A stretch of 64,000 bases of DNA, from the NCBI GenBank assembly GCA_035327305.1, contig DAOLDL010000002.1, forward strand, positions 19,334-83,333, read 5' to 3'. Below, piece by piece: positions 733 through 47,299 of this stretch. The position numbers and the translations under genes are program-made. Below the pieces are notes generated by a model that searched no databases, was not told the DNA's origin, and worked only from the letters and a program-made list of their open reading frames with translations. Every line of letters begins with the position of its first letter. The first letter of the stretch is position 1. The stretch comes from Kiritimatiellia bacterium (GTDB lineage Bacteria > Verrucomicrobiota > Kiritimatiellia > CAIVKH01).

Positions 733-793
733 GATTCACCTTAAAAATGGAGTTAAATTATGTATGGAATTACCACTCCGTGGCAATCAAAAA

Positions 794-29961: not shown

Positions 29962-29963
29962 GA

Positions 29964-32900
29964 CTATGCCTCCTTTGTGATGATCAGTGGCATGTAGGAC
30001 ACGGATCGCGTGACGCCATAAAATAACGAAGCCATTTCCACCGCGTGACGCAATGATACTTGCTCCTTGTTTGACTTTACACTTGTCCCGTGTACCGCCA
30101 CAAGATGCCAATCCAAATGCCATTCGGCACGCAATTCGGGAGTCGTGTAGACAATAGTATCCGCGATTGCCAATGTATGCGTTTCGCCATTCACCCTGGA
30201 ATAAACAAAGCTGGCGCGCCCCTTTTGCTCCATCAGAAAAGCATTATCCGTCTCACTCACAAATTCATCGGCGTTCAGATAAATGCGTGGTTTATCCTTA
30301 TAAGGTTTTCCAATGCTTGGACAAAACGTGACGCAATTTCCACATTCATTGCAAAAGTCGGAGTAAACCGCGACCTGATAGGGTTGGTTGATTCGAATGG
30401 TTTCTCCGCCGAGAGTGAACCATTGCCCATTATGTATCCGCCCGATCGGTAAATTCCAGTGAGCGGGAATATGCTCATACGTGAACAAGGCAAGGTTGGG
30501 ACAAACTCCAACGCAGTAACTGCACAAGTGATCACAATCCAGACAACGCGCCGCCTCGCGTCGTGCGGCGTCAGCGCCCAATGTCTCCACTACTTCCTGA
30601 AAATCCCTGCGCTGACCGGCCGGGCGTTGAGGAATGGATTCAGGCGTCGAACGCGTAGCCCGATGCAATTGAATCGAACCACGGTCAATTTTCGGGAAAA
30701 TCGCGCGGTCGGTCGGTGCGATAGAACCTTCGAACCGCTCCCGAATCGAACGTGCAATCCGTTTGCCATCCCCAAGCGCCTTTACAATCGTTGCCGGCCC
30801 GTCACCAATTGCATCACCCCCCGCATACACGCCGTCCAAACAAGTTTCCAGTGTAGTTGGCTTTACTTCGATGTAACCATTGGAATTAAATTCCACACCT
30901 TCATTTTTCAACCAATCGAAATCGCCAGACTGATTGATCGCGACGATCAATGCATCAAGAGGGAGTTCCTCGAACTTTCCTTCAACTGGCCTGGGTTTTC
31001 TCCGACCGCCGGCATCCGGCTCGCCAAGCTCCATCACACTGCACACAAGTCCGGAGAGACGTCCCTCATGTGCCAGCAGTTTTTTGGGCGCCAGCAATTC
31101 ACGGACAGGAATATTTTCGTCAAGCAGTCCGGTAATTTCATCGTATTGCGCAGGCATTTCATACCGGGTGCGCCGATAGATCACCGACACCTGTTCCGCA
31201 CCAATCCGCCATGCTGTTCTGGCACAATCCATGGCAACGTCACCGCCCCCCACAACCCCGACGCGATTACCAAGTTTGGGCGGACGCCCTTCACGGCATT
31301 CTTTCAGAAACGAAAGGGAATCCCAGACCCCGTCGACGTTCTCCCCTTCCATTCCCAGCTTTCCGGCTTTTTGCGCACCAATCGCAATGACAACGGCATC
31401 AAAGCCTTCTTTCCGAAGATCCGTCAACGTGAAGTCTTTGCCTGCGCAGACATTGTGCCTGATCTGAACGCCGCGTTGTACAAGAAATGACGTATCCTTG
31501 AGCAATGCATCATCGGAAGCACGATAGCCAGGAATCGAAGACGAAACCATGCCGCCCTCGCGGTCGCGCGCATCCATGATCGTAACCTGATAACCGGCAC
31601 GACTCAAGAAGTCAGATGTCGCCAGGCCGCAAGGTCCGGCGCCGATTATCGCGATGCGTTCCTTGCGTTTTGTTTCCGTGTTCACGTTAGCGCGTGCGTG
31701 ATCGACGATAAATCTTTTGATTTCCCGGATTTCCACCGGTTGATCCAGATGACTGCGCACACATCGGGCATGACAGGGATGATGACACGCCCGGCCTAAA
31801 ATAGCCGGCATGGTGTTGTCACGTTCGACAACGTCGGCCGCCTTTTGAAGTTGTCCGGTCTTCACCATCCGCATGTATTGTGGAACTTTTTGTTCAATCG
31901 GACAGACATCGGTGCAAGGCGCCTTGATGCAATCAAACGAACCCAACGGACGCAATGACTTGGTGTCGGCCCGCTGGTAAGTATCGGCATGGTAGGATTT
32001 ATCTGCCGACACATGTTCGGCATACGACGCGAGATTATGAAGTGCGGCTTTCCGTTTGTCGTTAACTCCAGCGGACTTCACGACCCAGTCATCGAGGTTC
32101 ACGCTGTTGAGTTCCGATAAGGATTTGCGAAGAATCGAGTAATACTGGGTCATTCGCGCATAACCGCCTGAACGCAGAAGATCCGAACACACGGTCACAG
32201 TTTTCATACCGCAACCGAGCAACGCGGGGATATTAAACGCGTCAGCGCCGCCGGAAAATGACATATCCAATTCGCCGTCGAATTCTTCCTGGAGTTTTCG
32301 CGCCACCTGCACCGTAATGGCATGCAAAGGTCGGCCCGACATGTACATTTGTTTTTCCCGCGATGAAAATACCTTGCGATGATTGATGACTTCAAGCGTG
32401 TTGGAAAGCTTGACGCCGAAACATAATCCTCGTTTTTCGGCAATCTCCCGCAAATCACGAATCAACGCCACGGCATGATCAAATGTGATGTCATGCCCGA
32501 ATGCTTCATCGGGAACGGTAATATCAGAAAAACCAAGCTCATCGTTTAGCAACCGGCGAAGTTCACGCGCACCCAGCAACGTAGGATTCAATTTCACGTA
32601 GGTGTGAAGGCCACGTTCCTCCAGCATATAGCGACAGATCGCACCAATCTCCTCGGGCGGGCAACCATGCATGGTGGAAAGTGTGATATTGTCGGATATA
32701 CGTTTGGGTATGTGGATGTCATCTATACCGGGAAAATGATCGCGGAGATCATTCACCACCGCGGAGATAAGGTTCGATCCATCATCCATACTGCGGAAGA
32801 ACTCCTGCACATTTGACTTGAGAATTCCCTCCATGTTGTAGCCGACACTCATATTGAATATCGCACCGGGACTGTCGCCCGGCATTCCCAGCATGCGATG

Positions 32901-33302
32901 CAAGGCATGGATCAGTACCCAGGCATTGGTGTACTCACGGATGGATTCCGCGATGCGCAGTTCCTGCGACCACTCTACATTAAAGCCGGCGTCTTCCATG
33001 TCGATGCAAGGCTTGGATACATCCAACTTATCCAACGTTTGAACGGTTTTCAGCTCAATGAAACGTGCGCCGCACAACCAGGCGGCAATGATATTCTGCG
33101 CCATTTGCGTGTGCGGGCCGGCGGCAACTCCAATCGGGGAATCAATATTTTGTCTAAATACCGAAGTCTTGAATGAATCGTCGGGTGAAGGCTGGAAAAA
33201 GACCTTGCGGTTGAGTCCCAACATGGAACCCGAGGCACTCCATTCATCGCGGAGCCATCGAGCCAACTTCACTGCGTCCAACGGATATAATCGATCACTC
33301 AT
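29964..33302 (-). CDS. ygfK: YgfK-like multidomain Fe-S flavoprotein oxidoreductase (DHOD/DPD-like TIM barrel, glutamate-synthase small-chain-like FAD/NAD(P) domain, 4Fe-4S ferredoxin)
   Basis: Collinear with E. coli YgfK: GVAAGPHTQMAQNI...GARFIELKTVQ...KPCIDMEDAGFNVEWSQE, LSTMHGCPPEEIGAICRYMLEE, Rossmann GAGPCGLA..., and C-terminal Cys clusters. The start at MSDRLYPLD (33302) has a GGGGAG SD. Confidence 0.8.
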   Translation of the reverse strand: MSDRLYPLDAVKLARWLRDEWSASGSMLGLNRKVFFQPSPDDSFKTSVFRQNIDSPIGVAAGPHTQMAQNIIAAWLCGARFIELKTVQTLDKLDVSKPCIDMEDAGFNVEWSQELRIAESIREYTNAWVLIHALHRMLGMPGDSPGAIFNMSVGYNMEGILKSNVQEFFRSMDDGSNLISAVVNDLRDHFPGIDDIHIPKRISDNITLSTMHGCPPEEIGAICRYMLEERGLHTYVKLNPTLLGARELRRLLNDELGFSDITVPDEAFGHDITFDHAVALIRDLREIAEKRGLCFGVKLSNTLEVINHRKVFSSREKQMYMSGRPLHAITVQVARKLQEEFDGELDMSFSGGADAFNIPALLGCGMKTVTVCSDLLRSGGYARMTQYYSILRKSLSELNSVNLDDWVVKSAGVNDKRKAALHNLASYAEHVSADKSYHADTYQRADTKSLRPLGSFDCIKAPCTDVCPIEQKVPQYMRMVKTGQLQKAADVVERDNTMPAILGRACHHPCHARCVRSHLDQPVEIREIKRFIVDHARANVNTETKRKERIAIIGAGPCGLATSDFLSRAGYQVTIMDARDREGGMVSSSIPGYRASDDALLKDTSFLVQRGVQIRHNVCAGKDFTLTDLRKEGFDAVVIAIGAQKAGKLGMEGENVDGVWDSLSFLKECREGRPPKLGNRVGVVGGGDVAMDCARTAWRIGAEQVSVIYRRTRYEMPAQYDEITGLLDENIPVRELLAPKKLLAHEGRLSGLVCSVMELGEPDAGGRRKPRPVEGKFEELPLDALIVAINQSGDFDWLKNEGVEFNSNGYIEVKPTTLETCLDGVYAGGDAIGDGPATIVKALGDGKRIARSIRERFEGSIAPTDRAIFPKIDRGSIQLHRATRSTPESIPQRPAGQRRDFQEVVETLGADAARREAARCLDCDHLCSYCVGVCPNLALFTYEHIPAHWNLPIGRIHNGQWFTLGGETIRINQPYQVAVYSDFCNECGNCVTFCPSIGKPYKDKPRIYLNADEFVSETDNAFLMEQKGRASFVYSRVNGETHTLAIADTIVYTTPELRAEWHLDWHLVAVHGTSVKSNKEQVSLRHAVEMASLFYGVTRSVSYMPLIITKEA

Positions 33303-33500
33303 TATCAGGTCTCCCCACCGTGCCATTGTTTGATTCCATCTCGATGGCAACCAGCACAAAGGAAATATCACCGCCATTATTTCAATATCAGGGAAGCACC
33401 GATACTCCTTCTGCGACGAATAGACCGCTCAAACGTTTCGTCTTTTCCCTGATAGGTCATTACGGCGCGTGCCCGATGGTATTAAAACTGCTTTATAACG

Positions 33501-36500
33501 ATGATATTCGCCATGAACTCCACCTTTTCGATTATTGATGGTAACGAAGCCGCCGCCGCAATTGCGCACAAAGTCAGTGAAGTTTGCGCAATCTATCCGA
33601 TCACGCCTTCCTCCAACATGGGCGAACTGGCCGACCAATGGTCCAGCGAGGGCCGCACGAACATCTGGGGCACCGTCCCGCTGGTTGTTGAGATGCAAAG
33701 TGAAGGTGGCGCCGCAGGCGCTGTTCACGGCGCATTGCAAACCGGAGCCATGGCCACCACGTTCACCGCGTCCCAGGGATTACTTCTCATGATCCCCAAC
33801 ATGTATAAAATCGCCGGTGAATTGACTCCGGCGGTATTTCATGTATCTGCACGAGCAATTGCATGCCAGGGTCTTTCCATTTTTGGTGACCATGCCGACA
33901 TCATGTCCGTGCGCGGGACCGGATTCGCCCTCCTTGGCGCCGCTTCAGTGCAGGAAGCCGCCGACATGGCATTGATCGCCCATTCCACCACGTTAAAGAC
34001 CCGGGTTCCATTTATTCACTTCTTTGATGGATTCCGTACATCTCATGAAGTAAACAAGGTCGTAACGCCGGATGACGATGTCATACGCGCCATGATTGAT
34101 GAGGAAGCCGTGCTGGCTCATCGGGCACGCGCCTTGAATCCTGACAAACCCGTCATGCGCGGAACGGCACAAAATCCTGATGTGTACTTTCAAGGTCGCG
34201 AAACCGTGAATCCATTTTATGCGGCAGTTCCTGATGCCGTTCAGTCCGCCATGGATCAGTTGGCTTCACTGACCGGACGTAAGTACAAACTTTATGATTA
34301 CTACGGCCATGCTGAAGCCGAACGCGTGGTTGTCCTGATGGGATCAGGGGTTGAAACCGTCAAGGAAACGATTGATGTCCTGTTGGCCAATGGAGAAAAA
34401 GTCGGCGTTCTGATGGTCCGGTTATTCCGCCCGTTTTCCGCCGGACATTTCGCCGCCGCCCTGCCCGCCACGGTAAAGACACTTGCCGTACTGGATCGAT
34501 CCAAGGAACCGGGATCTGCCGGAGAGCCCCTGTATCAGGATGTCATCACCGCCCTGGTGGAACAATTCAATGATGGCAGGTTGTCCATGCCGTCCCTACC
34601 CCGGATCATTGGCGGACGCTACGGACTTTCCTCCAAGGAATTCACCCCGGCTATGGTAAAAGCCGTATATGACGAATGCGCGAAAGCACAACCCAAAAAT
34701 CACTTCACGGTAGGTATCAACGACGATGTTTCGCATACCAGCCTGGAAATCGATCCCGACTTCGTGATTGAATCCGATAAAGTTGTCCGGGCCGTGTTTT
34801 ATGGACTTGGTGCGGATGGCACGGTCGGTGCAAACAAAAACTCGATCAAGATTATCGGGGAAGAGACAGATTTTTATACACAGGGTTATTTTGTCTATGA
34901 CTCAAAAAAATCCGGATCGCAAACGGTTTCACATCTTCGTTTCGGTCCCGACCCCATTCGCTCCACCTACCTGATTCAATCCGCCAACTTTGTCGGATGT
35001 CACCAATTTGGCTTCCTGGAAAAAACCGATGTGCTCAAGCTGGCCGCGCCCGGCTCGGTATTTCTTCTTAACAGTCCCTTCGGCCCGGATGACGTCTGGA
35101 ACAAATTGCCGGGACGAATCCAGGAACAAATCATTGCCCGTAAGATATCGTTTTACGTCATTGATGCCTACAAAGTCGCCAGGGAAAGCGGCATGGGTTC
35201 GCGCATCAACACCATCATGCAAACCTGCTTTTTCGCAATCTCCGGCGTTTTGCCGCGCGACAAAGCCATTGAACAAATCAAGAAGGCGATCGAAAAAACC
35301 TACAAACGAAAAGGCGTGGAAGTTGTTCAAAAGAATTTCGCCGCCGTGGATCATACCCTTGCCCATCTTTATCAGGTAAATGTGCCGTCAGCCGTCACCG
35401 CTGACACCGCGCCGCCGCGAATTGTCTCAGACAACGCTCCTGAATTTGTACAAAGTGTACTCGTCCCGATGATGATCGGAGAAGCCGACAATCTGCCGGT
35501 AAGCAAGATGCCGGTAGACGGGACATTCCCCACAGCAACGACGAAATGGGAAAAAAGAAACATTTCCGACATGGTGCCGGTTTGGGATGAAACAATTTGC
35601 ATCCAGTGCGGACTTTGCGGACTGGTCTGCCCTCACAGCGTCATACGTTCCAAAACCTATGATGAATCGCACTTAACCCATGCGCCCGCCGCATTCAAAT
35701 CCGCTACCTTACGAGGCAAGGATGTCGCACCAGGATCACGGTATACCTTGCAGGTTTACATTGAAGACTGTACCGGGTGCGGACTATGCGTCGGGGTATG
35801 CCCGACCAAAAACAAGCAGGAGGTCGGATTACGCGCAATCAATATGGAAGCCAAGGCTCCCGTTTTCGAAGACGAGCGTGAAAATATCCGTTTTTACGAA
35901 ACGTTGCCGGTCAATACGGATCCGACACTGGATGGAACCCTGGTCAAGGATGTGCAGTACATGGATCCTTTGTTCGAGTTCTCTGGAGCTTGCAGTGGTT
36001 GCGGAGAAACGCCGTACGTTAAAATATTAAGTCAGCTTTTCGGTGATCGCATGCTGGTGGCCAACGCCACCGGCTGTTCATCGATTTATGGCGGAAACCT
36101 TCCTTCCACCCCTTGGTCAGTCGATCATCTGGGACGAGGCCCCGCCTGGTCGAATTCGCTGTTTGAGGACAATGCCGAGTTTGGATTCGGATACCGGCTG
36201 ACCCTCGATAAACATTCGGAATATGCCAGTGAATTGATAAAGAAATTCGGACCGCAATTGGGCGATCAACTGGTAGACGATATCCTGAACGGAAGAAGAA
36301 CCGGTAAAGCCGAGGTGGAAAAACAACGGGAACGAGTATCTGCCGCCAAAGAAATATTAACGTCCGTCAAAGATCCGGACGCGCGGCGCCTGTTGTCGAT
36401 TATTGATTGTCTGGTCAACCGCAGTATTTGGATTATGGGGGGAGACGGATGGGCGTACGATATCGGGTACGGCGGATTGGATCACGTACTCGCCTCGGGA

Positions 36501-37109
36501 CGCGATATCAATGTGCTGGTTCTGGACACCGAAGTATATTCCAACACCGGTGGTCAGATGTCCAAATCAACGCCACGCGGCGCGGTGGCAAAATTTGCCG
36601 CCGGTGGCAAACAATTGGGCAAAAAAGACCTTGGCCTACTGGCCATTTCCTATGGTCATGTCTACGTTGCCCGGGTTGCGATGGGCGCAAATCCACGCCA
36701 GACCTTGCGGGCATTGGTTGAAGCAGAACAATATCCTGGACCATCGCTGGTCATTGCCTACAGCCACTGCATTGCACACGGCATCGATATGGCAAATGGT
36801 CTGAAACAGCAAAAACTCGCGGTCGACAGCGCACACTGGCCGCTTTACCGGTTCAATCCGGGTCTGATGGGATCGGACAAAAACCCGTTCAGTCTCGACA
36901 GCAAACCTCCCACCATTTCACTCCGGGATTATGCTTACAACGAAGTTCGCTACCGGATGCTTCATCACAGCCATCCCGAAGAAGCCAGCCGGTTGCTCAA
37001 ATTGGCGGAGCAGGATGTCAAGGAGCGCTGGGCCATTCACGAAAGCCTTGTTAAACGCTATGAACCCGCACCGGCTGTTGCCGCCGTTGAAAGCAGGAGC
37101 ACGACATGA
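33501..37109 (+). CDS. nifJ: Pyruvate:ferredoxin (flavodoxin) oxidoreductase, single-polypeptide NifJ/PFOR type
   Basis: 1202 aa, collinear with PFOR: N-terminal domains I/II, two ferredoxin Cys motifs (CIQCGLCGLVCP, CTGCGLCVGVCP), and the TPP domain GGDGWAYDIGYGGLDH. An alternative start is at 33513. Confidence 0.9.
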   Translation: MIFAMNSTFSIIDGNEAAAAIAHKVSEVCAIYPITPSSNMGELADQWSSEGRTNIWGTVPLVVEMQSEGGAAGAVHGALQTGAMATTFTASQGLLLMIPNMYKIAGELTPAVFHVSARAIACQGLSIFGDHADIMSVRGTGFALLGAASVQEAADMALIAHSTTLKTRVPFIHFFDGFRTSHEVNKVVTPDDDVIRAMIDEEAVLAHRARALNPDKPVMRGTAQNPDVYFQGRETVNPFYAAVPDAVQSAMDQLASLTGRKYKLYDYYGHAEAERVVVLMGSGVETVKETIDVLLANGEKVGVLMVRLFRPFSAGHFAAALPATVKTLAVLDRSKEPGSAGEPLYQDVITALVEQFNDGRLSMPSLPRIIGGRYGLSSKEFTPAMVKAVYDECAKAQPKNHFTVGINDDVSHTSLEIDPDFVIESDKVVRAVFYGLGADGTVGANKNSIKIIGEETDFYTQGYFVYDSKKSGSQTVSHLRFGPDPIRSTYLIQSANFVGCHQFGFLEKTDVLKLAAPGSVFLLNSPFGPDDVWNKLPGRIQEQIIARKISFYVIDAYKVARESGMGSRINTIMQTCFFAISGVLPRDKAIEQIKKAIEKTYKRKGVEVVQKNFAAVDHTLAHLYQVNVPSAVTADTAPPRIVSDNAPEFVQSVLVPMMIGEADNLPVSKMPVDGTFPTATTKWEKRNISDMVPVWDETICIQCGLCGLVCPHSVIRSKTYDESHLTHAPAAFKSATLRGKDVAPGSRYTLQVYIEDCTGCGLCVGVCPTKNKQEVGLRAINMEAKAPVFEDERENIRFYETLPVNTDPTLDGTLVKDVQYMDPLFEFSGACSGCGETPYVKILSQLFGDRMLVANATGCSSIYGGNLPSTPWSVDHLGRGPAWSNSLFEDNAEFGFGYRLTLDKHSEYASELIKKFGPQLGDQLVDDILNGRRTGKAEVEKQRERVSAAKEILTSVKDPDARRLLSIIDCLVNRSIWIMGGDGWAYDIGYGGLDHVLASGRDINVLVLDTEVYSNTGGQMSKSTPRGAVAKFAAGGKQLGKKDLGLLAISYGHVYVARVAMGANPRQTLRALVEAEQYPGPSLVIAYSHCIAHGIDMANGLKQQKLAVDSAHWPLYRFNPGLMGSDKNPFSLDSKPPTISLRDYAYNEVRYRMLHHSHPEEASRLLKLAEQDVKERWAIHESLVKRYEPAPAVAAVESRSTT

Positions 37110-38122
37110 ACCTAAGTACCAACTATATGGGTCTTCATCTGAAAAATCCGCTCGTCCCCTCCGCGTCCCCCATCATGGAAAACGTGGACAACATCCGCCG
37201 GCTGGCCGACGCCGGAGCTTCCGCAGTTACCATGTTCTCCATATTCGAAGAGCAACTTCGCATGGAAGCGGCGGCTTTGGACCACTACACATCGGTAGGC
37301 GACAATATGTATGCGGAATCATTGTCGTTCTTTCCGCAAACGGATGAATACCATGTTGCACCGAACCGGTACCTCGACATCATTCACCGGGCTTCGCAGG
37401 CTGTTGACATTCCCATCATTGGAAGCTTGAACGGCATGACCAATGAAGGCTGGATTGACTACGCGGCGCAAATTGAAAAAGCCGGCGCCAAAGCACTGGA
37501 ATTGAACATATTCATGATTCCCACCGACCCGAAAATCAGCGGTGGCAAGGTTGAGGAGTCCTATATCGATATCGTGAAGGCGGTCCGTGACGCAGTCTCC
37601 ATTCCAATCGCGGTAAAAATGAATCCGTTCTTCAGTTCGATTGCCAATATGGCGAAAAGGTTTGAGGAAGCTGGCGCTGATGGACTGGTTCTCTTCAACC
37701 GGTTTATACAACCTGACTTCGATCTTGAAGAACTCGAAGTCGTGCCAAACCTCACCCTTAGCTCGCCCGGTGAAATCAGGCTTCCGCTCCGGTGGATTGC
37801 CATCCTGTATGGCCGTCTCGGCATATCGCTGGCGGCATCTCGCGGCGTTCATTCATCGCGTGAAGTTATTAAATACATCCTGGCTGGCGCGGATATTGTT
37901 TGCATGACATCCGCCTTGCTCAAACAGGGCATCCCCTACCTCAACCACTTGCTCACCGATCTGGTCGCCTGGATGGATGAACATGAATACGAGTCGATCG
38001 AACAGATGAAAGGCGCCATGAGCCAGAAGTCCGTTTCCGATCCATCGGCATTCGAGCGCGCGAATTATATCAAGACCATTGAGCATTTCAAACGACACCA
38101 TGCCGCCAGCATGCCGTGGTAA
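37106..38122 (+). CDS. Dihydroorotate dehydrogenase / dihydropyrimidine dehydrogenase-like flavoprotein (class 1 DHOD fold)
   Basis: GLHLKNPLVPSAS and DHOD-like TIM-barrel pattern, 338 aa. Its ATG overlaps the PFOR stop (ATGA). Confidence 0.7.
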   Translation: MNLSTNYMGLHLKNPLVPSASPIMENVDNIRRLADAGASAVTMFSIFEEQLRMEAAALDHYTSVGDNMYAESLSFFPQTDEYHVAPNRYLDIIHRASQAVDIPIIGSLNGMTNEGWIDYAAQIEKAGAKALELNIFMIPTDPKISGGKVEESYIDIVKAVRDAVSIPIAVKMNPFFSSIANMAKRFEEAGADGLVLFNRFIQPDFDLEELEVVPNLTLSSPGEIRLPLRWIAILYGRLGISLAASRGVHSSREVIKYILAGADIVCMTSALLKQGIPYLNHLLTDLVAWMDEHEYESIEQMKGAMSQKSVSDPSAFERANYIKTIEHFKRHHAASMPW

Positions 38123-38159
38123 GTGATAGTGAATCAGTACAAAATAAGGAGAATAAAAA

Positions 38160-38348
38160 ATGAAAGTTGAAGTTGATGCCAGCACCTGCACGGGTTGTGC
38201 AGTTTGCAGTGATTTGGCGCCGGAAGTATTCGAATTGACGGATGACAATATTTCAATCGTCAAAACGCCTGAAGTGCCAGCCGGATTGGAAGACAAAGTT
38301 CAAGAAGCGGCCGATAGCTGTCCGGTAACCTGTATTGCCATTTCCTGA
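38160..38348 (+). CDS. fdx: Small single-cluster [4Fe-4S] ferredoxin
   Basis: 62 aa with CTGCAVC...CP Cys pattern. Strong SD AAGGAGAATAAAAA before the ATG. Confidence 0.75.
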   Translation: MKVEVDASTCTGCAVCSDLAPEVFELTDDNISIVKTPEVPAGLEDKVQEAADSCPVTCIAIS

Positions 38349-38423: not shown

Positions 38424-40307
38424 ATGCATGTTCCATTGGGATTAATTTTAGTTCCTCTTATCGGGGCATTTGTCATGTTGGCATTGGGCCTCACGAAAAT
38501 GCGAAAACCTCTGGTGATCGCATGTTCCACGGTTATTGGTCTTGGGTCCCTGCATCTGCTCTTCAATCAACTGCATTCTGAATTTCTACTGATGCCAATC
38601 AATGAACACGATTGGCTTCCAGTATTCGGTTGGTTGGGACTGGGAATCGGCGTTCTCCTGTTCATCATCAGCATTCGTCATCGACAGTACCTCGCGGCGA
38701 TCTTGGCCGCGACACAGGCAACGCTGGCCTGGTGGGCCGAGCACCTCACGCATATTTCGGAACAAGTAGTGCCTGCGCCCATGGTAATTGATCATTTATC
38801 GACCATCATGGCGGCAATCGTCGGGCTGATCGGCGGACTGATTTGCGTCCATGCCGTTGGCTACATGAAAGATTGGCATGAACATCACAAAAACCTTCCT
38901 GATCGACGTAATGTTTTCTTTTTTCTCCTGTTTATTTTTCTCTCATCCATGTTTGGTTTGGTATTTGCCAACAGCCTGCCTTGGCTGGTCTTTTTCTGGG
39001 AAGTCACCACTATTTGTTCCTTTTTCCTGATCGGCTACGCACGTTCTGACGAAGCCATCAAAAACTCATTTCTGGCTTTGAAGCTGAATCTGATTGGCGG
39101 GATTTTCATGACGTTGGGATGGATTCTGATTATCTGGCGGGGGGGAACCCTGGATATGCTTCAAATAGTGGCTTCCGGTGACGCACTTTACCTTTTGCCG
39201 GTTGCCATGATTTGTGTGGCTGGATTGGTCAAATCGGCCCAGTTTCCCTTCTCGCCCTGGTTACTCGGTGCGATGGTGGCGCCGACACCTGTTTCCGCCA
39301 TGCTACATGCCAGCACCATGGTAAAGGCCGGTGTGTATGTAATCATCCGGTTTGCCCCGGTTTTGCAAGACACCACGGCCGGACTTATGATATCATTGAT
39401 TGGTGCAACTACTTTTCTCCTCACCTCTCTGATCGCCATCGGCCAGAATAATGCCAAACGAGTTCTGGCTTACTCCACCATCGCCAACCTTGGCCTTATC
39501 GTTACATGCGCAGGCACCGGACAATACAATGCCATTTGGGCGGCCATACTATTAATTATATTCCACGCAGTCGCCAAAGCACTTCTGTTTCTAGCCGTTG
39601 GCACGGTTGAACATCGTCTTGGCAGTCGTGATATCGAGGATATGCAGGGACTTATTATGCGTCATCCGGCGCTTGCCGTGGCCATGTTGGTGGGAATCGC
39701 CGGGATGTTCCTGGCGCCTTTCGGATTATTGATAAGCAAATGGGCCGCACTGGAAGCACTGATTGTAGTCAATCCCATCCTGCCGATATTTGTTGTTTTC
39801 GGCAGTTCAGCGACGCTATTTTTCTGGGCAAAGTGGATGGGTAAAATCATTGGCGCGGAGCCTGGTACCCGCCCGGTTCCTGATGACACCCACTCGCTCG
39901 AATTGATTGTGTTGGCGGTACTGACGTCCATGGTGATTGTCTGTTGCGCAGCTTTCCCCTGGGTCGCGGAAATGATGATCGACCCCTATGTTATTTCCGC
40001 CTACGGGCGCACCATGATTATTGATCGCGAGACCATGGTGGTCATGTCCATCATGCTCTTGCTGGTGGCGCTACTTCCGTTAAGCCTTCTTTATCGGGGT
40101 GGCGAACGTTTCCGTCGCGTGGCGCCTTATCTTGCAGGAGCCAACTACGAACACCCCTACCGATTCACCGGCTCCGCCGGCAAAGAATATTCAATGGGAT
40201 TCAAAAACTATTACCTGGCTGAATATCTTCCCGAGGCCGGTATATGCCGCTGGGGATATCTGGCTTCGCTGACACTATTGCTGGTACTCATGGTGGTGGC
40301 ATTATGA
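38424..40307 (+). CDS. echA: Ech hydrogenase subunit A (NuoL/MnhA-like proton-antiporter membrane subunit)
   Basis: 627 aa polytopic Proton_antipo_M-type protein. First gene of the ech-type module. Confidence 0.8.
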   Translation: MHVPLGLILVPLIGAFVMLALGLTKMRKPLVIACSTVIGLGSLHLLFNQLHSEFLLMPINEHDWLPVFGWLGLGIGVLLFIISIRHRQYLAAILAATQATLAWWAEHLTHISEQVVPAPMVIDHLSTIMAAIVGLIGGLICVHAVGYMKDWHEHHKNLPDRRNVFFFLLFIFLSSMFGLVFANSLPWLVFFWEVTTICSFFLIGYARSDEAIKNSFLALKLNLIGGIFMTLGWILIIWRGGTLDMLQIVASGDALYLLPVAMICVAGLVKSAQFPFSPWLLGAMVAPTPVSAMLHASTMVKAGVYVIIRFAPVLQDTTAGLMISLIGATTFLLTSLIAIGQNNAKRVLAYSTIANLGLIVTCAGTGQYNAIWAAILLIIFHAVAKALLFLAVGTVEHRLGSRDIEDMQGLIMRHPALAVAMLVGIAGMFLAPFGLLISKWAALEALIVVNPILPIFVVFGSSATLFFWAKWMGKIIGAEPGTRPVPDDTHSLELIVLAVLTSMVIVCCAAFPWVAEMMIDPYVISAYGRTMIIDRETMVVMSIMLLLVALLPLSLLYRGGERFRRVAPYLAGANYEHPYRFTGSAGKEYSMGFKNYYLAEYLPEAGICRWGYLASLTLLLVLMVVAL

Positions 40308-41170
40308 CGCGAAACTTTCTGGCGGGATTTGCTTATCTATTGCTGGCGCCGGTGATCGGCGCCGTATTGGCCGGCATTGACCGCCGCATCACGGCACGCA
40401 TGCAAGGTCGACGCGGTCCCCCCATCCTTCAGCCGATTTACGATTTATTCAAACTACTTCAGAAAGAGCCGATCGGTGTTCGTCGCACCGGACATTTTTT
40501 TGTATTTGGCCATCTGATTTTCATGATGGCGGCAGGATTTGAATTTTTCTTTGGCGGCGACTTGTTGATTGTGATTTTCGCGTTTGCGCTTTCCAGCGTA
40601 TTCCTCGTTTTGGGAGCCTATGCCGCCCATTCACCCTTCAGTCACATTGGCGCCGAACGTGAATTGCTCCAGATGATGGCGGCCGAACCGATTCTCCTGC
40701 TGACCGCCATGGGATTTTATCTCGCAAACGGAAGCTTCCGTGTGGAACAGATATCCACACATCCCGTTCCGGCACTGTATGTTCTACCCGGTATATTTGC
40801 CGCGCTCGCCTTTATTCTAACCATTAAACTTCGCAAATCACCATTTGACCTTGCCACGTCCCATCACGCTCATCAGGAAATCGTCAAAGGACTGACCACG
40901 GAATTTTCCGGCGTTTCCCTTGCACTGGTGGAAATTGCGCACTGGTATGAAACGATCATGCTGTTGGGTCTGTTTTACCTTTTTCTCGCACCCTATCCGG
41001 TCGCGGCCATCCTCCTCGTTGCGGTTGTTTACGGACTCGAAATCCTGCTGGATAATACCAGCGCCCGCATGAAATGGCAGTGGGCAATGAAAAGCTCCTG
41101 GACAACCGCCTCCATTCTCGGCGCCATCAACCTCATTGTGATTTATTACTGGCTGGGAGGACAGCCATGA
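40304..41170 (+). CDS. echB: Ech hydrogenase subunit B (NuoH/HycD-like membrane subunit)
   Basis: NuoH-like sequence. ATG 40304 overlaps the echA stop (ATGA). Confidence 0.8.
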   Translation: MTRNFLAGFAYLLLAPVIGAVLAGIDRRITARMQGRRGPPILQPIYDLFKLLQKEPIGVRRTGHFFVFGHLIFMMAAGFEFFFGGDLLIVIFAFALSSVFLVLGAYAAHSPFSHIGAERELLQMMAAEPILLLTAMGFYLANGSFRVEQISTHPVPALYVLPGIFAALAFILTIKLRKSPFDLATSHHAHQEIVKGLTTEFSGVSLALVEIAHWYETIMLLGLFYLFLAPYPVAAILLVAVVYGLEILLDNTSARMKWQWAMKSSWTTASILGAINLIVIYYWLGGQP

Positions 41171-41610
41171 GCTTTTTCACCAAATCGCCATGGATTGTCC
41201 ATTACGACGGCGCCAGTTGTAACGGTTGCGACATCGAAGTGCTGGCCTGCTTGACTCCCCGTTATGATGTGGAGCGATTCGGATGCATTAACACCGGCAA
41301 CCCCAAACATGCCGACATTTTGCTCATCACCGGCTATATCAATGAACAAAGTGAGCCGGTAGTCAGGGCCATCTACGAGCAGATGGCTGACCCCAAGGTC
41401 GTAGTCGCCATTGGTATTTGCGCAACAAGCGGTGGAATCTTCAAGGATTGCTACAACACCAAAGGTGGTGTGGATACGGTCATTCCGGTTGATGTCTATG
41501 TGCCCGGTTGCGCCGCACGCCCAGAATCCATCATCGATGGCGTGGTAAAAGGCATCGCCATACTCGACCAGAAGCGCAAAACACTTAAGGAGTCGCGCAA
41601 AGCATCATGA
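41167..41610 (+). CDS. echC: Ech hydrogenase small subunit (NuoB-like, [4Fe-4S])
   Basis: CNGCDIE...GICATSGG...PGC pattern. ATGA overlap with echB. Confidence 0.85.
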   Translation: MSFFTKSPWIVHYDGASCNGCDIEVLACLTPRYDVERFGCINTGNPKHADILLITGYINEQSEPVVRAIYEQMADPKVVVAIGICATSGGIFKDCYNTKGGVDTVIPVDVYVPGCAARPESIIDGVVKGIAILDQKRKTLKESRKAS

Positions 41611-41984
41611 TCCCCGAGCAAGTCATTCATGAAATTGATTCAACCGATCTGCTTGAACGCACGCAGATCATGAAGCGTGAAGGATGGCGACTGGTGCAGA
41701 TTTGCGCCACGACGCTGGACGCCTTTGAAATGAGCTACAGCTTTACCATCGACAACCGATTTGAGCATTTCCGGCTTAAAATCCCATTACAGCAACCGAT
41801 CCTGCCCAGCATTACCGAAATATACTTTGGCGCCTTTGCCTATGAGAATGAATTGCACGACCTTTTCGGCATTTCGTTCCAAGGACTCAAACTCGATTAC
41901 GCCGGCAACTTTTTCAAGACGTCGGTTAAAAAGCCGTTTGCCACCAGCATGTGCGTGATTAAAAAAGGAGAAGCCGGTGTCTGA
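41607..41984 (+). CDS. echD: Ech hydrogenase subunit D (NuoC-like 30 kDa subunit)
   Basis: NuoC-like 125 aa protein. 4-nt overlap with echC. Confidence 0.7.
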   Translation: MIPEQVIHEIDSTDLLERTQIMKREGWRLVQICATTLDAFEMSYSFTIDNRFEHFRLKIPLQQPILPSITEIYFGAFAYENELHDLFGISFQGLKLDYAGNFFKTSVKKPFATSMCVIKKGEAGV

Positions 41985-43056
41985 ACGAACGGTCATTCCA
42001 TTCGGGCCTCAACACCCTGTCCTGCCGGAGCCTATCCATATCGATCTGGTGGTGGAAGATGAGCATGTCAAAGAGGCCATCCCCTCCTTTGGCTTTATTC
42101 ATCGCGGACTTGAGAAGCTGGTTGAGAAAAAAGATTTCAACGAATTCACCTACGTTGCGGAGCGGGTGTGCGGCATCTGCAGTTACATTCATGGCATGGG
42201 GTATTGCCAAGCCGTGGAAAAAGTCATGAATGTCGAAATCCCGCCCCGTGCAAATTACCTCCGGGTATTTTGGGCGGAACTTTCCCGGGCGCACAGTCAT
42301 TTGATGTGGGCAGGTTTGCTGGCCGATGCGTTTGGTTTTGAGAACCTCTTCATGCAGTGCTGGCGGATTCGCGAAACGCTTCTCGATGTAATCGAGGAAA
42401 CCACCGGCGGTCGCGTCATTTTCGGATCCGCCAAAATCGGCGGTGTGCGCCGCGATGTCGATAATGAAACGTTGAAACGTTGCGCGGCCAAAGTCGCCTC
42501 TGCAGCGGTTGAGTTTGAGGAAATTAAAAAGGTTTTCCGCGACGACTATTCAGTAAAGTCGCGCTTGTGTGGGATCGGCATGCTTTCCCGCGATAATGCA
42601 TGGGAACTTGGCGCGGTCGGACCGACTCTTCGAGGCAGTGGCATTAGCACCGATACCCGGCTTGAAGGATATGCGGCCTACCGCGACTTATCCATAACCC
42701 CGATCGTGGAAACCGCTTGTGACAGCTATGCGCGTTGCATGGTGCGACTGCATGAAATCAGCCAATCCCTTGATCTCATTCAGGAAGTTGCGGCCCGCAC
42801 CCCCGAAGGTCCGGTTTTCGAAAAACCCAAGGGCTACCCCAATGGCGAATATTTTGCCCGATTGGAACAGCCTCGCGGTGAAGTCATTTATTATGTAAAA
42901 GGTAATGGAACGAAGAACTTGAGTCGGTTCCGGGTACGAACCCCGACGTTTGCCAATATTCCCGCCCTGCTTCACATGTTGCAAGGATGCGAACTGGCGG
43001 ATGTCGGCTTGATCGTGCTTACGATCGACCCATGTATCAGTTGTGCGGAGCGATGA
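41977..43056 (+). CDS. echE: [NiFe] hydrogenase large subunit, group 4 energy-converting type (EchE/NuoD-like)
   Basis: L1 motif RVCGICSYIH and C-terminal L2 motif DPCISCAER are both intact, so Ni-Fe ligands are present. 359 aa like EchE. Confidence 0.85.
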   Translation: MSERTVIPFGPQHPVLPEPIHIDLVVEDEHVKEAIPSFGFIHRGLEKLVEKKDFNEFTYVAERVCGICSYIHGMGYCQAVEKVMNVEIPPRANYLRVFWAELSRAHSHLMWAGLLADAFGFENLFMQCWRIRETLLDVIEETTGGRVIFGSAKIGGVRRDVDNETLKRCAAKVASAAVEFEEIKKVFRDDYSVKSRLCGIGMLSRDNAWELGAVGPTLRGSGISTDTRLEGYAAYRDLSITPIVETACDSYARCMVRLHEISQSLDLIQEVAARTPEGPVFEKPKGYPNGEYFARLEQPRGEVIYYVKGNGTKNLSRFRVRTPTFANIPALLHMLQGCELADVGLIVLTIDPCISCAER

Positions 43057-43057
43057 A

Positions 43058-43465
43058 ATGAAACCTCTCGCCATGACCAAACTTTCGTTGCGGAACCTGT
43101 TCAAAGAACCGGTGACGGTGGCCTATCCGGTTATACCGCGGGAATACTTCCCCGGTACCCGGGGTCGCATACTTATAGAGCCATCCACATGCAATCTTTG
43201 CGTTATCTGCGATGTTCGATGTCCGACAAAGGCAATCAAAGTCGATCGTAAAGGTCAAACCTGGACCATTGATCGCCTGTCCTGCATTCAATGCGGTGCT
43301 TGCGTCGAGGCATGTCCAAGGAAATGCCTGACCACCGGCAATCAATATTCCGAACCCATGACCGAAAAGTCTGTCCTTGTAGTCCCGATTCCGTTTGTTC
43401 CGCCGCCGCCCAAACCAAAACCGCCCGCAAAGGATGCAAGCGATGCAAAAGACAGTCCCGTATAG
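43058..43465 (+). CDS. echF: Ech hydrogenase subunit F (NuoI-like 2x[4Fe-4S] ferredoxin)
   Basis: Two CxxCxxCxxxCP motifs (CNLCVICDVRCP, CIQCGACVEACP) and a Pro/Lys-rich C-terminal tail. Start at ATG 43058. Confidence 0.8.
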   Translation: MKPLAMTKLSLRNLFKEPVTVAYPVIPREYFPGTRGRILIEPSTCNLCVICDVRCPTKAIKVDRKGQTWTIDRLSCIQCGACVEACPRKCLTTGNQYSEPMTEKSVLVVPIPFVPPPPKPKPPAKDASDAKDSPV

Positions 43466-43466
43466 C

Positions 43467-43958
43467 ATGGCCATTGAAAGCCGATATCCGGAGCAGATTG
43501 CCGTCTGTATTGCCCGTGATTCCTCCGGACGTTACAACCCCATGACGATTGGATGGTTCATGCCGGTTTCCATGAAGCCGCCACTGATTGCCGTGGCAAT
43601 CGGTAATTCCCGTCACACGAATGCAGTGATCAAGCACGCTGGTGAATTTGTTTTATCCTTTCTATCCGAGGACCAGGCTAATCTGGCCCGCTACTTCGGC
43701 ACAAAATCCGGTCGTGATACCGACAAGTTCGGCACTATTCGTTGTGAAACCGTTCCGGCGGATAAAATTGACAACCGGTTGATTCGTGATGCCGTGGCGA
43801 ATTTTGAATGCGTGGTCAAACAAACGGTGGAAACGGGTGATCACACCATATTTATCGGTGAAATCGTTTGTGCCCATGTCACGGATAATCCGGTCAATCG
43901 TATGTTCACCCTGGTCAAAGCGGAACACTTGAATGGTGTGCGACAAAAATCCGTATAA
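43467..43958 (+). CDS. Flavin reductase-like domain protein (FMN-binding split-barrel, PF01613-like)
   Basis: 163 aa with flavin-reductase-like pattern (ESRYPEQIAVCIARDSSGRYNPMTIGWFMPVSMKPPLIAVAIG...). It begins 1 nt after the echF stop and ends 11 nt before hoxE. Confidence 0.65.
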   Translation: MAIESRYPEQIAVCIARDSSGRYNPMTIGWFMPVSMKPPLIAVAIGNSRHTNAVIKHAGEFVLSFLSEDQANLARYFGTKSGRDTDKFGTIRCETVPADKIDNRLIRDAVANFECVVKQTVETGDHTIFIGEIVCAHVTDNPVNRMFTLVKAEHLNGVRQKSV

Positions 43959-43969: not shown

Positions 43970-44461
43970 ATGAATGCCGTTGAAACTAATGTTATCGGCG
44001 ATGAAAAAAGGTGGCGCCTTGTCGAGGCGGTCATGCGACGTTGCGGCTACTGCGGCGATGCCTTGATTGAAACCTTGCATGCCGTACAGGAGACCTATGG
44101 CTTTATCGACGAATCATCTATGCGTCGCGTGGCGGATTCATTGAAACTACCGTTAAGCAAGGTTTACGGTGTCGCAACATTCTACCACTTCTTCCACCTT
44201 AAACCGAAGGGTCGCCATACTTGCGTGGTCTGTATGGGAACTGCCTGTTACATCAAAGGCGCCGATGCCATCATGCAAAAAATTGATGACGCATTTGGCG
44301 TGAAGGCTGGTGAGACCACGCCGGATGACCACTTGTCGGTCATGACGGCGCGCTGTGTTGGTTCCTGTGGATTAGCCCCTGCCGTGGTGGTGGATCAACA
44401 GGTATTAGGGCATATCAAACCGGATCAAGTCGTCAATCACATCAAGGAGCTGGAATCATGA
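43970..44461 (+). CDS. hoxE: NAD(P)-linked hydrogenase diaphorase subunit HoxE (NuoE-like, [2Fe-2S])
   Basis: NuoE/thioredoxin-like 2Fe-2S pattern CGYCGDA...CMGTACYIKGA...CVGSCGLAP. Confidence 0.85.
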   Translation: MNAVETNVIGDEKRWRLVEAVMRRCGYCGDALIETLHAVQETYGFIDESSMRRVADSLKLPLSKVYGVATFYHFFHLKPKGRHTCVVCMGTACYIKGADAIMQKIDDAFGVKAGETTPDDHLSVMTARCVGSCGLAPAVVVDQQVLGHIKPDQVVNHIKELES

Positions 44462-46071
44462 CCCCCGAAGCCCTCCAGCAAGTAGCCAAAGCCGAGCAGG
44501 ACGCCATCACCAAACAACCGCAACGCATCGGTGTTTGCACTGCCGCCGGCTGTCTTTCATGCAAAAGCGGAGAAGTCCTAAAAACACTTCAAACCGCACT
44601 CGAACGCCGGGCCGACGTACCCTACAAAGCGGTGGGGGTCGGATGCATGGGGCTTTGCGCGCATGGACCGCTGGTGTCGGTCGAACCCGATGGTTTACTT
44701 TACCAGGACGTCGGCAAGGACGATATTCCAGCTTTGGTGGATTCTCTGGCCACGACACCGGTCATGGAAAAGCAATGCGATCTCAAAGCGCCATTTTTCA
44801 GCCGACAAGTCAAGGTGGTACTGGATAAGTTCGAGAAAATCCAGCCCGAACGCATCGAGTCCTATCTGGCCAACGGCGGTTACGAAGCTTTGATGCAATG
44901 CGTAACCAACCGATCACCGGAGCACATACTGGACGAAGTAAAACGAAGCGGCCTTCGTGGTCGCGGCGGCGGAGGATATCCCACCGGATTAAAGTGGGAA
45001 ACCGTAGCCAAGGCGCACGGCGCCAGGAAATTCGTGATCTGTAATGCTGATGAAGGCGACCCCGGCGCTTTCATGGACCGCAGTGTATTGGAGTGCGCGC
45101 CGCATCGGATTCTGGAAGGAATGGCCATCGCCGCATATGCGGTTGGCGCAACCGCAGGTTACCTTTATGTGCGCGCGGAATACCCGCTTGCCGTGCAACG
45201 ACTAAAGCTGGCTATTCGCCAGGCGGAAAAATTCGGACTTTTGGGCGATCACATTTGTGGAAGTTCATTCAGCTTTAAAGTGGAAATTCGGCTTGGCGCC
45301 GGGGCCTTTGTATGCGGAGAAGAAACCGCGTTGATCGCATCGATTGAGGGACGGCGAGGTCAACCGCGACCGCGCCCGCCCTTCCCTGCTGAAAAAGGTT
45401 TATGGGGCAATCCGACATTGATCAATAACGTGGAAACATTTGCGAATGTCCCGGCTATTCTCGTAAAGGGAGCGGATTGGTTTGCGGCAATGGGTACGGA
45501 ACAAAGCAAAGGAACCAAGGTTTTCGCTTTAGCCGGAAAAATCAACAATACCGGCTTGATCGAAGTTCCCATGGGCATCAGCTTAAGAGAAATCGTGGAG
45601 GAAATGGGCGGAGGCGCTCCAGATGGACACACCATCAAGGCCGTACAAACCGGAGGTCCATCCGGCGGCTGTATTCCCTCGGATCGGTTTGATATTTCCG
45701 TGGACTACGAGTCGCTGAAGAAAATGGGATCCATCATGGGTTCCGGAGGCATGATCGTGATGGATGAAACATCGAGCATGGTCGATGTCGCTCGCTTTTT
45801 CATGGAGTTCTGCAAGTCGGAGTCATGTGGCAAGTGCGTACCATGCCGGGTGGGAACATCACAATTGTACGACCTACTGGAACGGGTCCGCAAAAAACGC
45901 GCATCGCACCGGGATCTGGAGCGGATCGAACAACTATGCGAAATGGTGCGTACCACGAGTCTATGCGGACTCGGGCAAACCGCGCCAAATCCACTGTTGA
46001 GCACCTTGAAATTCTTCCGTCACGAATACGAAGAACTTCTGGTGGATCAACATGGGGAGGCCGTGTCATGA
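44458..46071 (+). CDS. hoxF: NAD(P)-linked hydrogenase diaphorase subunit HoxF (NuoF-like, FMN/NAD(P)H-binding, Fe-S)
   Basis: [15 protein letters not shown]-binding glycine-rich region, 4Fe-4[11 protein letters not shown], and an N-terminal Trx-like 2Fe-2S domain. 4-nt overlaps on both sides. Confidence 0.9.
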
Positions 46072-46790: not shown

Positions 46791-47293
46791 GCAGAATTCG
46801 CTTTGCCACAGTTTGGCTTGATGGCTGTTCCGGTTGTCACATGTCGTTTCTGGACATGGACATGATCCTGCTCGACCTCGCGGAAAAAATTGACCTCGTT
46901 TACAGTCCGCTGGTGGATTTCAAGATATTCCCGGAGAATGTGGATGTAACCGTGGTTGAAGGCGCCGTGAGCAGTGTGGAGGATGAGGAGAAAATTAAAC
47001 ATATCCGGAGCCGGACCAAGACATTGATTGCCCTGGGCGATTGCGCGGTGACCAGCAATGTTCCGGGGATGCGCAATGTCTTCAGCGTGGATGACATCAT
47101 GGAATATGTTTATGGCGATGAGCCGCCGGTGAAAGTCATTCCACCACTCCTTGAAAAAAGCGTGCCGGTGCATCATGTTGTGCCGGTCGATGTTTTCATA
47201 ACCGGATGTCCGCCATCCGCCGACACCATCGTCAAGGCGCTTCTGGCTGTGCTGGAAGGCAAGCCCAATCCCGTTCCACCCCGATTTGGATGA
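46787..47293 (+). CDS. hoxY: [NiFe] hydrogenase small subunit, group 3 (HoxY)
   Basis: Proximal cluster motif [15 protein letters not shown] and ITGCPPS. SD ACAAGGAG; ATGA overlap with hoxU. Confidence 0.85.
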
Positions 47294-47299
47294 CAAACC

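Follow-up and report, generated by a model that had tools for sequence, protein, structure and literature searches.

A conserved gene pair for pyruvate:ferredoxin oxidoreductase and a dihydroorotate dehydrogenase-like protein at the front of a likely pyruvate-to-hydrogen operon in an uncultured Kiritimatiellia bacterium

Introduction

Genes for proteins resembling dihydroorotate dehydrogenase (DHOD) have been noticed together with the gene for pyruvate:ferredoxin (flavodoxin) oxidoreductase (PFOR) in two model systems. In Synechocystis, nifJ (sll0741), sll0743 and sll0744, the last annotated as "dihydroorotate dehydrogenase (fumarate)", form one transcription unit, TU3296, whose expression rises transiently, along with that of hox, when dark microoxic conditions set in (PMC11368403). 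The PFOR gene of Propionibacterium shares both transcription and regulation with flanking GltD-like and DHOD-like genes; the authors argued that the DHOD-like protein is not a DHOD and postulated an electron-bifurcating, quinol-linked complex with PFOR, which they stated to be unconfirmed (McCubbin et al. 2020, PMC7650540). A DHOD-like gene is also among the genes most strongly induced at night in Microcystis. Our literature searches returned these mentions in Synechocystis, Propionibacterium and Microcystis only and no biochemical study of the DHOD-like family. Here, we analyzed a PFOR gene that is followed by a DHOD-like gene and a ferredoxin gene (together referred to as the triad, positions 33501-38348) in a stretch of 64,000 nucleotides (nt) from a Kiritimatiellia bacterium (assembly GCA_035327305.1, contig DAOLDL010000002.1, positions 19,334 to 83,333). 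This whole stretch is called the window below.

TU3296 resembles the triad in combining PFOR and a DHOD-annotated gene in one unit, in its case induced with hox, but it contains an extra hypothetical gene and no ferredoxin gene, and hox lies elsewhere in the genome. Judging from its annotation and from other cyanobacterial loci, sll0744 presumably belongs to the same family (NF005741) as the window protein; in two cyanobacterial loci of our comparison (L056 and L076; loci are given by L numbers throughout), PFOR is followed by a DHOD-like gene whose product is 53-54% identical to that of the window. The Propionibacterium cluster is alike in the DHOD-like gene that flanks PFOR and is co-transcribed with it, but there, PFOR is preceded by a GltD-like (NfnB-like) gene, and genes for a ferredoxin or a hydrogenase are absent. 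The PFOR-ferredoxin I system of Desulfovibrio africanus and the PFOR-ferredoxin-hydrogenase system of Thermotoga maritima share with the window a canonical PFOR and the type of ferredoxin, with its CxxCxxC...CP motif, whereas their genes are not ordered PFOR, DHOD-like, ferredoxin. D. africanus ferredoxin I and similar single-cluster ferredoxins serve PFOR as native electron acceptors, and Ech hydrogenases depend on ferredoxin. The echABCDEF operons of Methanosarcina barkeri, Desulfovibrio gigas and Caldanaerobacter match the Ech genes of the window in number (six), order, subunit types and intact Ni-Fe cysteine motifs; unlike in these operons, the genes of the predicted window Ech are joined to PFOR, ferredoxin and Hox genes.

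PFOR is central to anaerobic and microoxic carbon metabolism and to biological hydrogen production, and in at least 600 species of more than 10 phyla, among them model cyanobacteria and wastewater Competibacter, a flavoprotein gene has remained linked to that for PFOR. Working out the role of the DHOD-like protein could redraw electron flow out of PFOR, including routes to H2, and would correct the widespread annotation "dihydroorotate dehydrogenase (fumarate)". An earlier reading of the window from its sequence (here called the original prediction) held that the triad is not a standard described operon. This stands insofar as no paper that we found determines the function of the family; the PFOR/DHOD-like pair itself, however, is already catalogued and was noticed in the two model systems, so that the window adds a new member to a known module. 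We consider it likely that the triad is the front of a fermentative pyruvate-to-hydrogen operon and that the DHOD-like protein is a conserved PFOR accessory, probably a flavin mononucleotide (FMN) redox partner. The window yields an operon model leading from pyruvate via PFOR and ferredoxin to Ech and Hox hydrogenases in an uncultured Kiritimatiellia bacterium and removes the tie to a purine gene cluster that the original prediction had drawn.

Results and Discussion

A PFOR gene overlapping a DHOD-like gene and followed by a ferredoxin gene

The first gene of the triad (33501..37109, + strand) encodes a nifJ-type PFOR of 1202 amino acids (aa), which scored 1778 bits on TIGR02176 (cut-off, 911 bits) and has the complete set of Pfam domains (POR_N, PFOR_II, POR, EKR, two Fer4 domains [Fer4_7] and TPP_enzyme_C). 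It aligned over its full length with the structures of the Moorella (6CIN, 1361 bits) and Desulfovibrio (1B0P, 1280 bits) enzymes and is predicted to be a PFOR of the canonical homodimeric type. The second gene (37106..38122, + strand) encodes the DHOD-like protein, a putative FMN-binding TIM-barrel protein of 338 aa (NF005741/PRK07565). The junction of the two genes at 37104-37111 reads ACATGAAC within the longer stretch AGGAGCACGACATGAAC, so that the PFOR stop codon TGA (37107-37109) overlaps the DHOD-like start codon ATG (37106-37108) in an ATGA at 37106-37109, with coordinates and sequence exactly as originally predicted. AGGAG lies 7 nt 5' of this ATG.

The third gene (38160..38348, + strand) encodes a single-cluster ferredoxin of 62 aa that matches Fer4_15 and Fer4_13. 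AAGGAG is found 8 nt 5' of its ATG, in agreement with the earlier description of a small ferredoxin gene with a strong Shine-Dalgarno sequence. The protein has the ligand set CxxCxxC...CP (Cys10, Cys13, Cys16 and Cys54-Pro), a motif that predicts a [4Fe-4S] cluster. Its nearest solved structures are the ferredoxins of T. maritima (1ROF), with which it aligns end to end, and Pyrococcus furiosus and ferredoxin I of D. africanus. A gap of 75 nt, without a terminator-like site on the + strand, separates the ferredoxin gene from echA. The triad, the Ech genes and the Hox genes are all located on the + strand with overlaps or short gaps between them, and they are presumably co-transcribed.

PFOR and the DHOD-like protein form a conserved pair in many phyla

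The DHOD-like family comprises 1100 clusters at the 50% identity level (E ≤ 1e-30) and is carried by at least 600 GTDB species. Neighborhoods were counted in the 80 best species loci for the DHOD-like protein, 79 of which had enough upstream DNA to be judged. PFOR lies directly upstream of the DHOD-like gene, on the same strand, in 74 of these 79 loci, and the upstream PFORs are 57-68% identical to that of the window. The gap between the two genes has a median of 61 nt, and several loci show an ATGA-type overlap. Carriers among the 80 loci belong to the Kiritimatiellota, Verrucomicrobiota, Lentisphaerota, Planctomycetota, Omnitrophota, Acidobacteriota, Chloroflexota, Cyanobacteria, Bacteroidota, Ignavibacteriota, Calditrichota, Deinococcota and Gamma- and Alphaproteobacteria. 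Linkage to PFOR was still seen in family members with about 41-44% identity (L088 and L089). The profile hidden Markov model (HMM) scores far exceed what chance would give, as does the repeated occurrence of the two genes side by side in other genomes, and the pair, spread over many phyla with short or overlapping gaps, is a genuine conserved unit, as originally supposed.

Clustering of all neighboring open reading frames (ORFs) returned PFOR and the DHOD-like gene as the sole recurrent pair. The next commonest neighbors, each in fewer than 10 loci, encode universal stress proteins, a GltD-like iron-sulfur (Fe-S) flavoprotein, CBS proteins, ADP-forming acetyl-CoA synthetase (5 loci) and HypF (5 loci); none of them is a purine or pyrimidine gene. 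The gene for the GltD-like protein (~570 aa, with a C-terminal 2x[4Fe-4S] domain) immediately precedes PFOR in the same orientation in L002, L005, L008, L011 and L062 and lies nearby in L054 and L065. The order GltD-like, PFOR, DHOD-like occurs in Competibacteraceae and other gammaproteobacterial loci and matches the Propionibacterium gene triad. In combination, these GltD-like and DHOD-like proteins would resemble a split dihydropyrimidine dehydrogenase (DPD), or PreTA. The pair also has Hox genes beside it in L056, L073 and L074 and Ech-like genes in L060 and L063; like HypF and the acetyl-CoA synthetase, these belong to fermentation or H2 metabolism and recur near the pair without being universal.

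Two loci appeared to contain natural PFOR::DHOD-like fusions (gaps of -999 and -990); they were rejected as artifacts because stop codons lie within the tblastn match, which makes the apparent read-through artifactual. Longer family members carry either a fused receiver domain (P0233, L087, on a 2-kb contig) or unannotated extensions only.

The triad is conserved in PVC bacteria and adjoins hydrogenase genes in Kiritimatiellia

A ferredoxin gene directly follows the DHOD-like gene in L081, L084, L085, L004 and L013, all of which are loci of the Planctomycetes-Verrucomicrobia-Chlamydiae (PVC) group. A cysteine-motif scan of small ORFs for hidden ferredoxin genes beside the pair found such genes in PVC loci only (L001, L004 and L013) and none in other phyla. 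In L085 (87% identity), the whole arrangement of the window is reproduced: PFOR, DHOD-like, ferredoxin, Ech, flavin reductase and Hox genes and the divergent YgfK cluster described below. L084 (80% identity) has a response regulator gene, the triad, the flavin reductase gene and HoxEFUYH, without Ech and YgfK; L081 (67% identity) has a GerE regulator gene, the triad and EchABCDEF, without Hox and YgfK. A hydrogenase thus always follows the triad in the Kiritimatiellia loci (the window, L085, L084 and L081). The triad occurs by itself, surrounded by housekeeping genes, in L004 and L013, with DnaG or peptidase genes on one side and lipid A or methyltransferase genes on the other. Since the triad is kept across PVC loci, with a hydrogenase as its companion in Kiritimatiellia, PFOR, DHOD-like and ferredoxin genes form a real three-gene unit, and the adjacency of YgfK is recent and local.

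A gene for a GerE-type regulator abuts or overlaps the start of PFOR in L081 (5698-6399) and L084 (5668-6402). The L084 regulator has a receiver domain, while GerE alone was detected in that of L081. L084 additionally encodes a sensor kinase and a second regulator at 1846-3635. In the window and L085, the position of the regulator upstream of PFOR is taken by the divergent YgfK cluster.

The DHOD-like protein lacks hallmarks of DHOD and DPD but keeps a conserved barrel

The DHOD-like protein scored 472.4 bits on NF005741 ("dihydroorotate dehydrogenase-like protein"; cut-off, 303 bits), with residues 1-330 matching profile positions 2-331 of 335. It also matches PF01180 and is 100% identical to an NCBI protein of the same name from a Kiritimatiellia metagenome-assembled genome. 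No structure of the family has been solved; the nearest chains are Lactococcus lactis DHODB PyrD (E = 4e-16), DHODA and pig DPD. Foldseek searches with an AlphaFold2 (AF2) model returned the FMN domain of DPD and DHODs of classes 1A and 1B (E = 1e-13 to 1e-17) at 17-22% identity and a template modeling (TM) score of about 0.6. The DHOD/DPD-like TIM-barrel fold that had been ascribed to the 338-aa protein is therefore backed by both PF01180 and predicted structure.

Active sites were compared using HMM alignments to DHOD and DPD and an alignment of 139 diverse family representatives with 37-56% identity. Like the class 1 DHODs (L. lactis DHODA and DHODB PyrD) and DPD/PreA, with which it shares the FMN TIM-barrel fold, the window protein keeps the asparagine of the ELN motif (N134), the lysine of the strand-5 VK(L/M) motif (K171) and the strand-6 asparagine (N198). 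The FMN-site residues N127, K164 and N193 of DHOD thereby have counterparts among the near-invariant positions of the family. The phosphate-binding glycine motifs are kept as well, with G247 and G261-A262 near-invariant. Across the 139 representatives, the near-invariant residues are S45, F47, E48, E49, N109, W116, E132, N134, E150, K171, F197, N198, R199, S219, W230, G247, R318 and Y321.

Other features set the window protein apart from class 1 DHOD and DPD, namely the lack of a PyrK partner, of the C-terminal Fe-S domain and of the Cys/Ser base. The catalytic base is Cys130 in class 1 DHODs, a Ser in class 2 and C671 in DPD; the DHOD-like family has no conserved equivalent, and in the window protein the catalytic loop is shortened and contains neither Cys nor Ser (ELNIFMIPTD versus ELNISCPNV in DHODB and ELNLSCPNVPG in DHODA). 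Position 136 is mostly Tyr (108 of the 139 representatives; Ser in 4) and position 137 varies (Tyr in 31, Phe in 21, Ser in 14 and His in 12), so that a conserved Cys or Ser occurs at neither. The position of Lys43 (K574 in DPD) is occupied by Met in the window; family-wide, Leu or Met is found at position 43 and various residues at position 44, with Lys at neither. The substrate loop Asn67-x-x-G-x-x-N (N67/N609) is replaced by a helical insertion, residues 48-84, with conserved FEE and SYFP. In the alignment to DPD, K574 falls in a gap, N609 is opposite Pro77 and the SCPHG loop is deleted. These losses of Lys43 and the substrate loop were read from the sequence alignment, the AF2 model being of low confidence in residues 48-84. 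The protein has a single, non-conserved cysteine (C266) and hence no Fe-S site, and it lacks a C-terminal 2x[4Fe-4S] domain.

Taken together, these residues argue that the protein is very probably a flavin-binding barrel with a working active site that is neither of the DHOD nor of the DPD type. FMN would be the bound flavin, and the protein is predicted not to be a dihydroorotate or dihydropyrimidine dehydrogenase. That it would be the biosynthetic class 1 DHOD of the organism is hardly credible. For such a role speak the PF01180 match and the JGI name of the family, "dihydroorotate dehydrogenase (fumarate)". However, the protein passes the "-like" model NF005741 and stays far below the cut-offs of the class 1 PyrD models (98.5 versus 270 bits on TIGR01037 and 97.9 versus 269 bits on NF005574) and of PreA (83.7 versus 335 bits on NF006183), the catalytic Cys/Ser and Lys43 are missing, and neither pyr genes nor pyrK were found nearby. 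Furthermore, Synechocystis presumably has a separate pyrD beside sll0744. PyrD scores and active-site residues thus uphold the earlier view that the gene is something other than an ordinary pyrD.

Ech and Hox hydrogenase genes follow the triad

Six genes for an Ech-type (group 4) membrane-bound [NiFe] hydrogenase, identified by Pfam and NCBIfam matches, follow the ferredoxin gene on the + strand (38424..43465). They encode EchA (NuoL-like, 38424-40307), EchB (NuoH-like, 40244-41170), EchC (NuoB-like, 41074-41610), EchD (NuoC-like, 41607-41984), the large subunit EchE (NuoD-like, 41977-43056) and the 2x[4Fe-4S] protein EchF (NuoI-like, 43043-43465). These coordinates are those of the longest ORFs, and the true starts of EchB, EchC and EchF probably lie further downstream. 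The Ni-Fe ligand motifs of EchE are intact (RVCGIC at 65-68 and DPCISC at 351-356), and the small subunit EchC has cysteines at positions 49, 52, 116 and 146. This six-gene set also comes after the triad in L081 and L085.

Downstream of Ech, HoxEFUYH, a bidirectional NAD-linked [NiFe] hydrogenase, is encoded at 43970..48724 (+ strand) and conserved in L084 and L085. HoxE (231.1 bits versus 224) and HoxU (386.1 bits versus 333) pass the cut-offs of their NCBIfam equivalogs, HoxF has Complex1_51K and NADH_4Fe-4S domains, and HoxH carries the Ni-Fe ligand motifs RTCGIC and DPCLSC. Directly before hoxE, a flavin-reductase-like protein is encoded at 43395..43958 (+ strand; PF01613, E = 4.5e-39). 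This gene precedes hoxE in all three Kiritimatiellia hox clusters (the window, L084 at 11298-11798 and L085 at 16356-16862). The canonical hoxEFUYH set does not include this gene, whose product could be the point at which electrons from ferredoxin or flavin enter Hox.

The divergent YgfK cluster is an independent unit

Upstream of PFOR and divergent from it, a YgfK-like protein is encoded at 29964..33377 (- strand). It combines an N-terminal barrel, predicted to have the DHOD/DPD fold, with a GltD-like Fe-S/FAD/NAD(P)H module and C-terminal 4Fe-4S sites. It passes TIGR03315 (889.6 bits; cut-off, 835.3 bits). The longest ORF has 1137 aa, the TIGR03315 match begins at residue 27 and the L085 orthologue has 1099 aa; the true start is likely the ATG at 33302. 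Beyond ygfK lie genes for SsnA, which passes its model, an 8-oxoguanine-deaminase-like amidohydrolase and three xanthine dehydrogenase (XDH)-type subunits, an arrangement like the Escherichia coli-type ygfK-ssnA-xdh cluster. The SsnA ORF (28645-30123) probably begins too early as well, since its match to the model starts only at residue 58.

The DHOD/DPD fold proposed for the N-terminal domain of YgfK was recovered by predicted structure only. By sequence, a link between the YgfK N terminus and the DHOD-like protein was not recovered, with BLASTP E values of >6, no Pfam match at E ≤ 1, no phmmer match in the PDB and an hhalign probability of 2%. The AF2 model of residues 27-480 (predicted local distance difference test [pLDDT] score of 87.8) had class 2 DHOD and DPD as its top Foldseek matches in the PDB, at E values of about 1e-9. 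With its FMN-type barrel, GltD-like module and Fe-S domains, YgfK reads in this model as a complete, circularly permuted DPD-like enzyme. Since it has its own NAD(P)H/FAD/Fe-S module, a PFOR-linked partner would not be needed. The YgfK/SsnA/XDH genes adjoin PFOR in the window and its closest relative L085 only; the adjacency is missing in L081, L084, L004, L013 and essentially all other loci. YgfK/SsnA/XDH is a separate conserved unit, independent of the triad, that happens to lie upstream in the lineage of the window.

A likely route from pyruvate to hydrogen and its alternatives

In the proposed pathway, PFOR would oxidize pyruvate with coenzyme A (CoA) to acetyl-CoA and CO2, and its electrons would exit via the [4Fe-4S] ferredoxin encoded two genes downstream. 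The ferredoxin would feed the six-subunit, ion-translocating Ech hydrogenase, yielding H2, and probably also HoxEFUYH, either directly or through the flavin-reductase-like protein. Hox and this companion would link the same electron pool to NAD(H). The FMN site of the DHOD-like protein, the presumed accessory of PFOR, would take electrons from the Fe-S chain of PFOR or from the ferredoxin and hand them to some further acceptor. Because the DHOD-like gene is attached to PFOR in many lineages and its product has a conserved active-site-like constellation, the protein is most likely an FMN redox partner of PFOR. A more specific version, which we put forward as a tentative possibility, is that it is an FMN subunit docked on PFOR as the DPD/PreA barrel is on its 2x[4Fe-4S] domain, providing a second, two-electron outlet. 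Candidate acceptors would be a quinone, a fumarate-like acid, O2 or, in some lineages, NAD(P)+ via the GltD-like partner. If true, hundreds of species, most of them non-clostridial and cyanobacteria among them, would contain a PFOR complex of a new class.

Several points weigh against the pathway and the redox-partner role. Moorella, Desulfovibrio and E. coli have PFORs that function in the absence of a DHOD-like partner, so that the protein is not required for core catalysis. Distant family members at 37-39% identity (L086, L090 and L091) are not beside PFOR. The absence of an Fe-S site in the DHOD-like protein leaves the electron route to its FMN unaccounted for, and its AF2 model is only moderate (pLDDT of 78), with residues 48-84 and the C terminus poorly defined. 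Transcription over the 75-nt gap into echA is only inferred for the window organism, and in a promoter scan promoter-like sites were no commoner than in shuffled sequences, the intergenic regions yielding nothing useful. Since our literature search found no experiment on the DHOD-like protein in any organism, its role as a redox partner is deduced from linkage and fold.

The original prediction was a different one: the DHOD-like protein, driven by PFOR and ferredoxin, would reduce a C=C bond in the ring of a purine or pyrimidine, and the product would feed the adjacent SsnA and deaminase-like amidohydrolases. The DHOD/DPD-like fold, the three active-site positions common to DHOD and DPD (N134, K171 and N198) and the divergently adjacent YgfK/SsnA/XDH genes of the window and L085 are compatible with this idea. 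However, that adjacency is local to these two loci, no purine or pyrimidine gene cluster recurs near the pair among the 80 loci (purine genes are missing nearby in nearly all), and it is Ech and Hox hydrogenases that are conserved as downstream partners. The catalytic Cys130/C671, Lys43/K574 and the pyrimidine-binding loop (N67/N609) are missing family-wide, and YgfK already holds a DHOD-fold barrel together with its own electron-input module. We therefore regard a pyruvate-driven heterocycle reductase as very unlikely and abandon that part of the prediction. The GltD-like gene found upstream of PFOR in five loci and nearby in two others suggests another arrangement, in which the DHOD-like protein would be the FMN subunit of a split DPD/Nfn-like complex connecting PFOR and ferredoxin to NAD(P)(H), possibly to quinone; in the window organism the partner would be encoded elsewhere in the genome, or the complex would make use of the GltD-like module of YgfK. 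PreT/PreA and DPD have this architecture of a GltD-like subunit joined with a DHOD-like barrel, and the same gene triad is co-transcribed in Propionibacterium (PMC7650540). But the GltD-like neighbor occurs in only about 7 of the 80 loci, the triads of Kiritimatiellia and Verrucomicrobia have no GltD-like gene apart from the unrelated YgfK, and the DHOD-like protein lacks the C-terminal Fe-S domain by which PreA connects to PreT. A split complex of this kind appears rather improbable.

The loss of the canonical catalytic residues would also fit a protein without substrate chemistry of its own, i.e., a structural, protective or regulatory companion of PFOR such as an oxygen shield or scavenger in carrier lineages that are mostly aerobic or facultative. 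Carriers among the top 80 are mainly Acidobacteriota, Chloroflexota, Cyanobacteria, Bacteroidota/Ignavibacteriota, Verrucomicrobiota and Competibacteraceae rather than classical strict anaerobes, cyanobacterial expression follows dark or microoxic transitions, and the conserved but poorly modeled segments (residues 48-84 and the C-terminal helix) may serve as surfaces for interaction. However, this taxon list is biased by similarity to the query, and the oxygen role is a conjecture. Furthermore, the top of the barrel is conserved family-wide (N109, N134, K171, N198-R199, S219, W230 and H249), which suggests a working active site, and a purely non-catalytic companion is improbable. An FMN redox partner of PFOR at the head of a pyruvate-to-hydrogen operon remains our favored interpretation.

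Other features of the window

The remainder of the window is otherwise housekeeping; it contains no pyr genes, and Rfam and tRNA scans of the window found nothing. Just past the hydrogenase region, a short ORF of the phage integrase family (50252-50935, - strand, 227 aa) is divergent from lexA (50998-51612, + strand) and may be a mobile-element remnant at the edge of the cluster. An ORF of 380 aa without a Pfam match (20560-21702, - strand) is located between the genes for homoserine dehydrogenase (21709-23007) and aspartate kinase (19306-20553), inside a string of amino acid biosynthesis genes. Further ORFs without a Pfam match are found at 61188-63962 (- strand, 924 aa), 5914-6858 (- strand, 314 aa), 56973-57641 (- strand, 222 aa) and 133-744 (+ strand, 203 aa). 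The PntB transhydrogenase beta subunit is encoded at 58537-59937 (+ strand), downstream of an ORF with a TTG start (57081-58247). Synechocystis induces pntB along with nifJ and hox (PMC11368403), and the parallel to the PntB gene of the window may be a coincidence.

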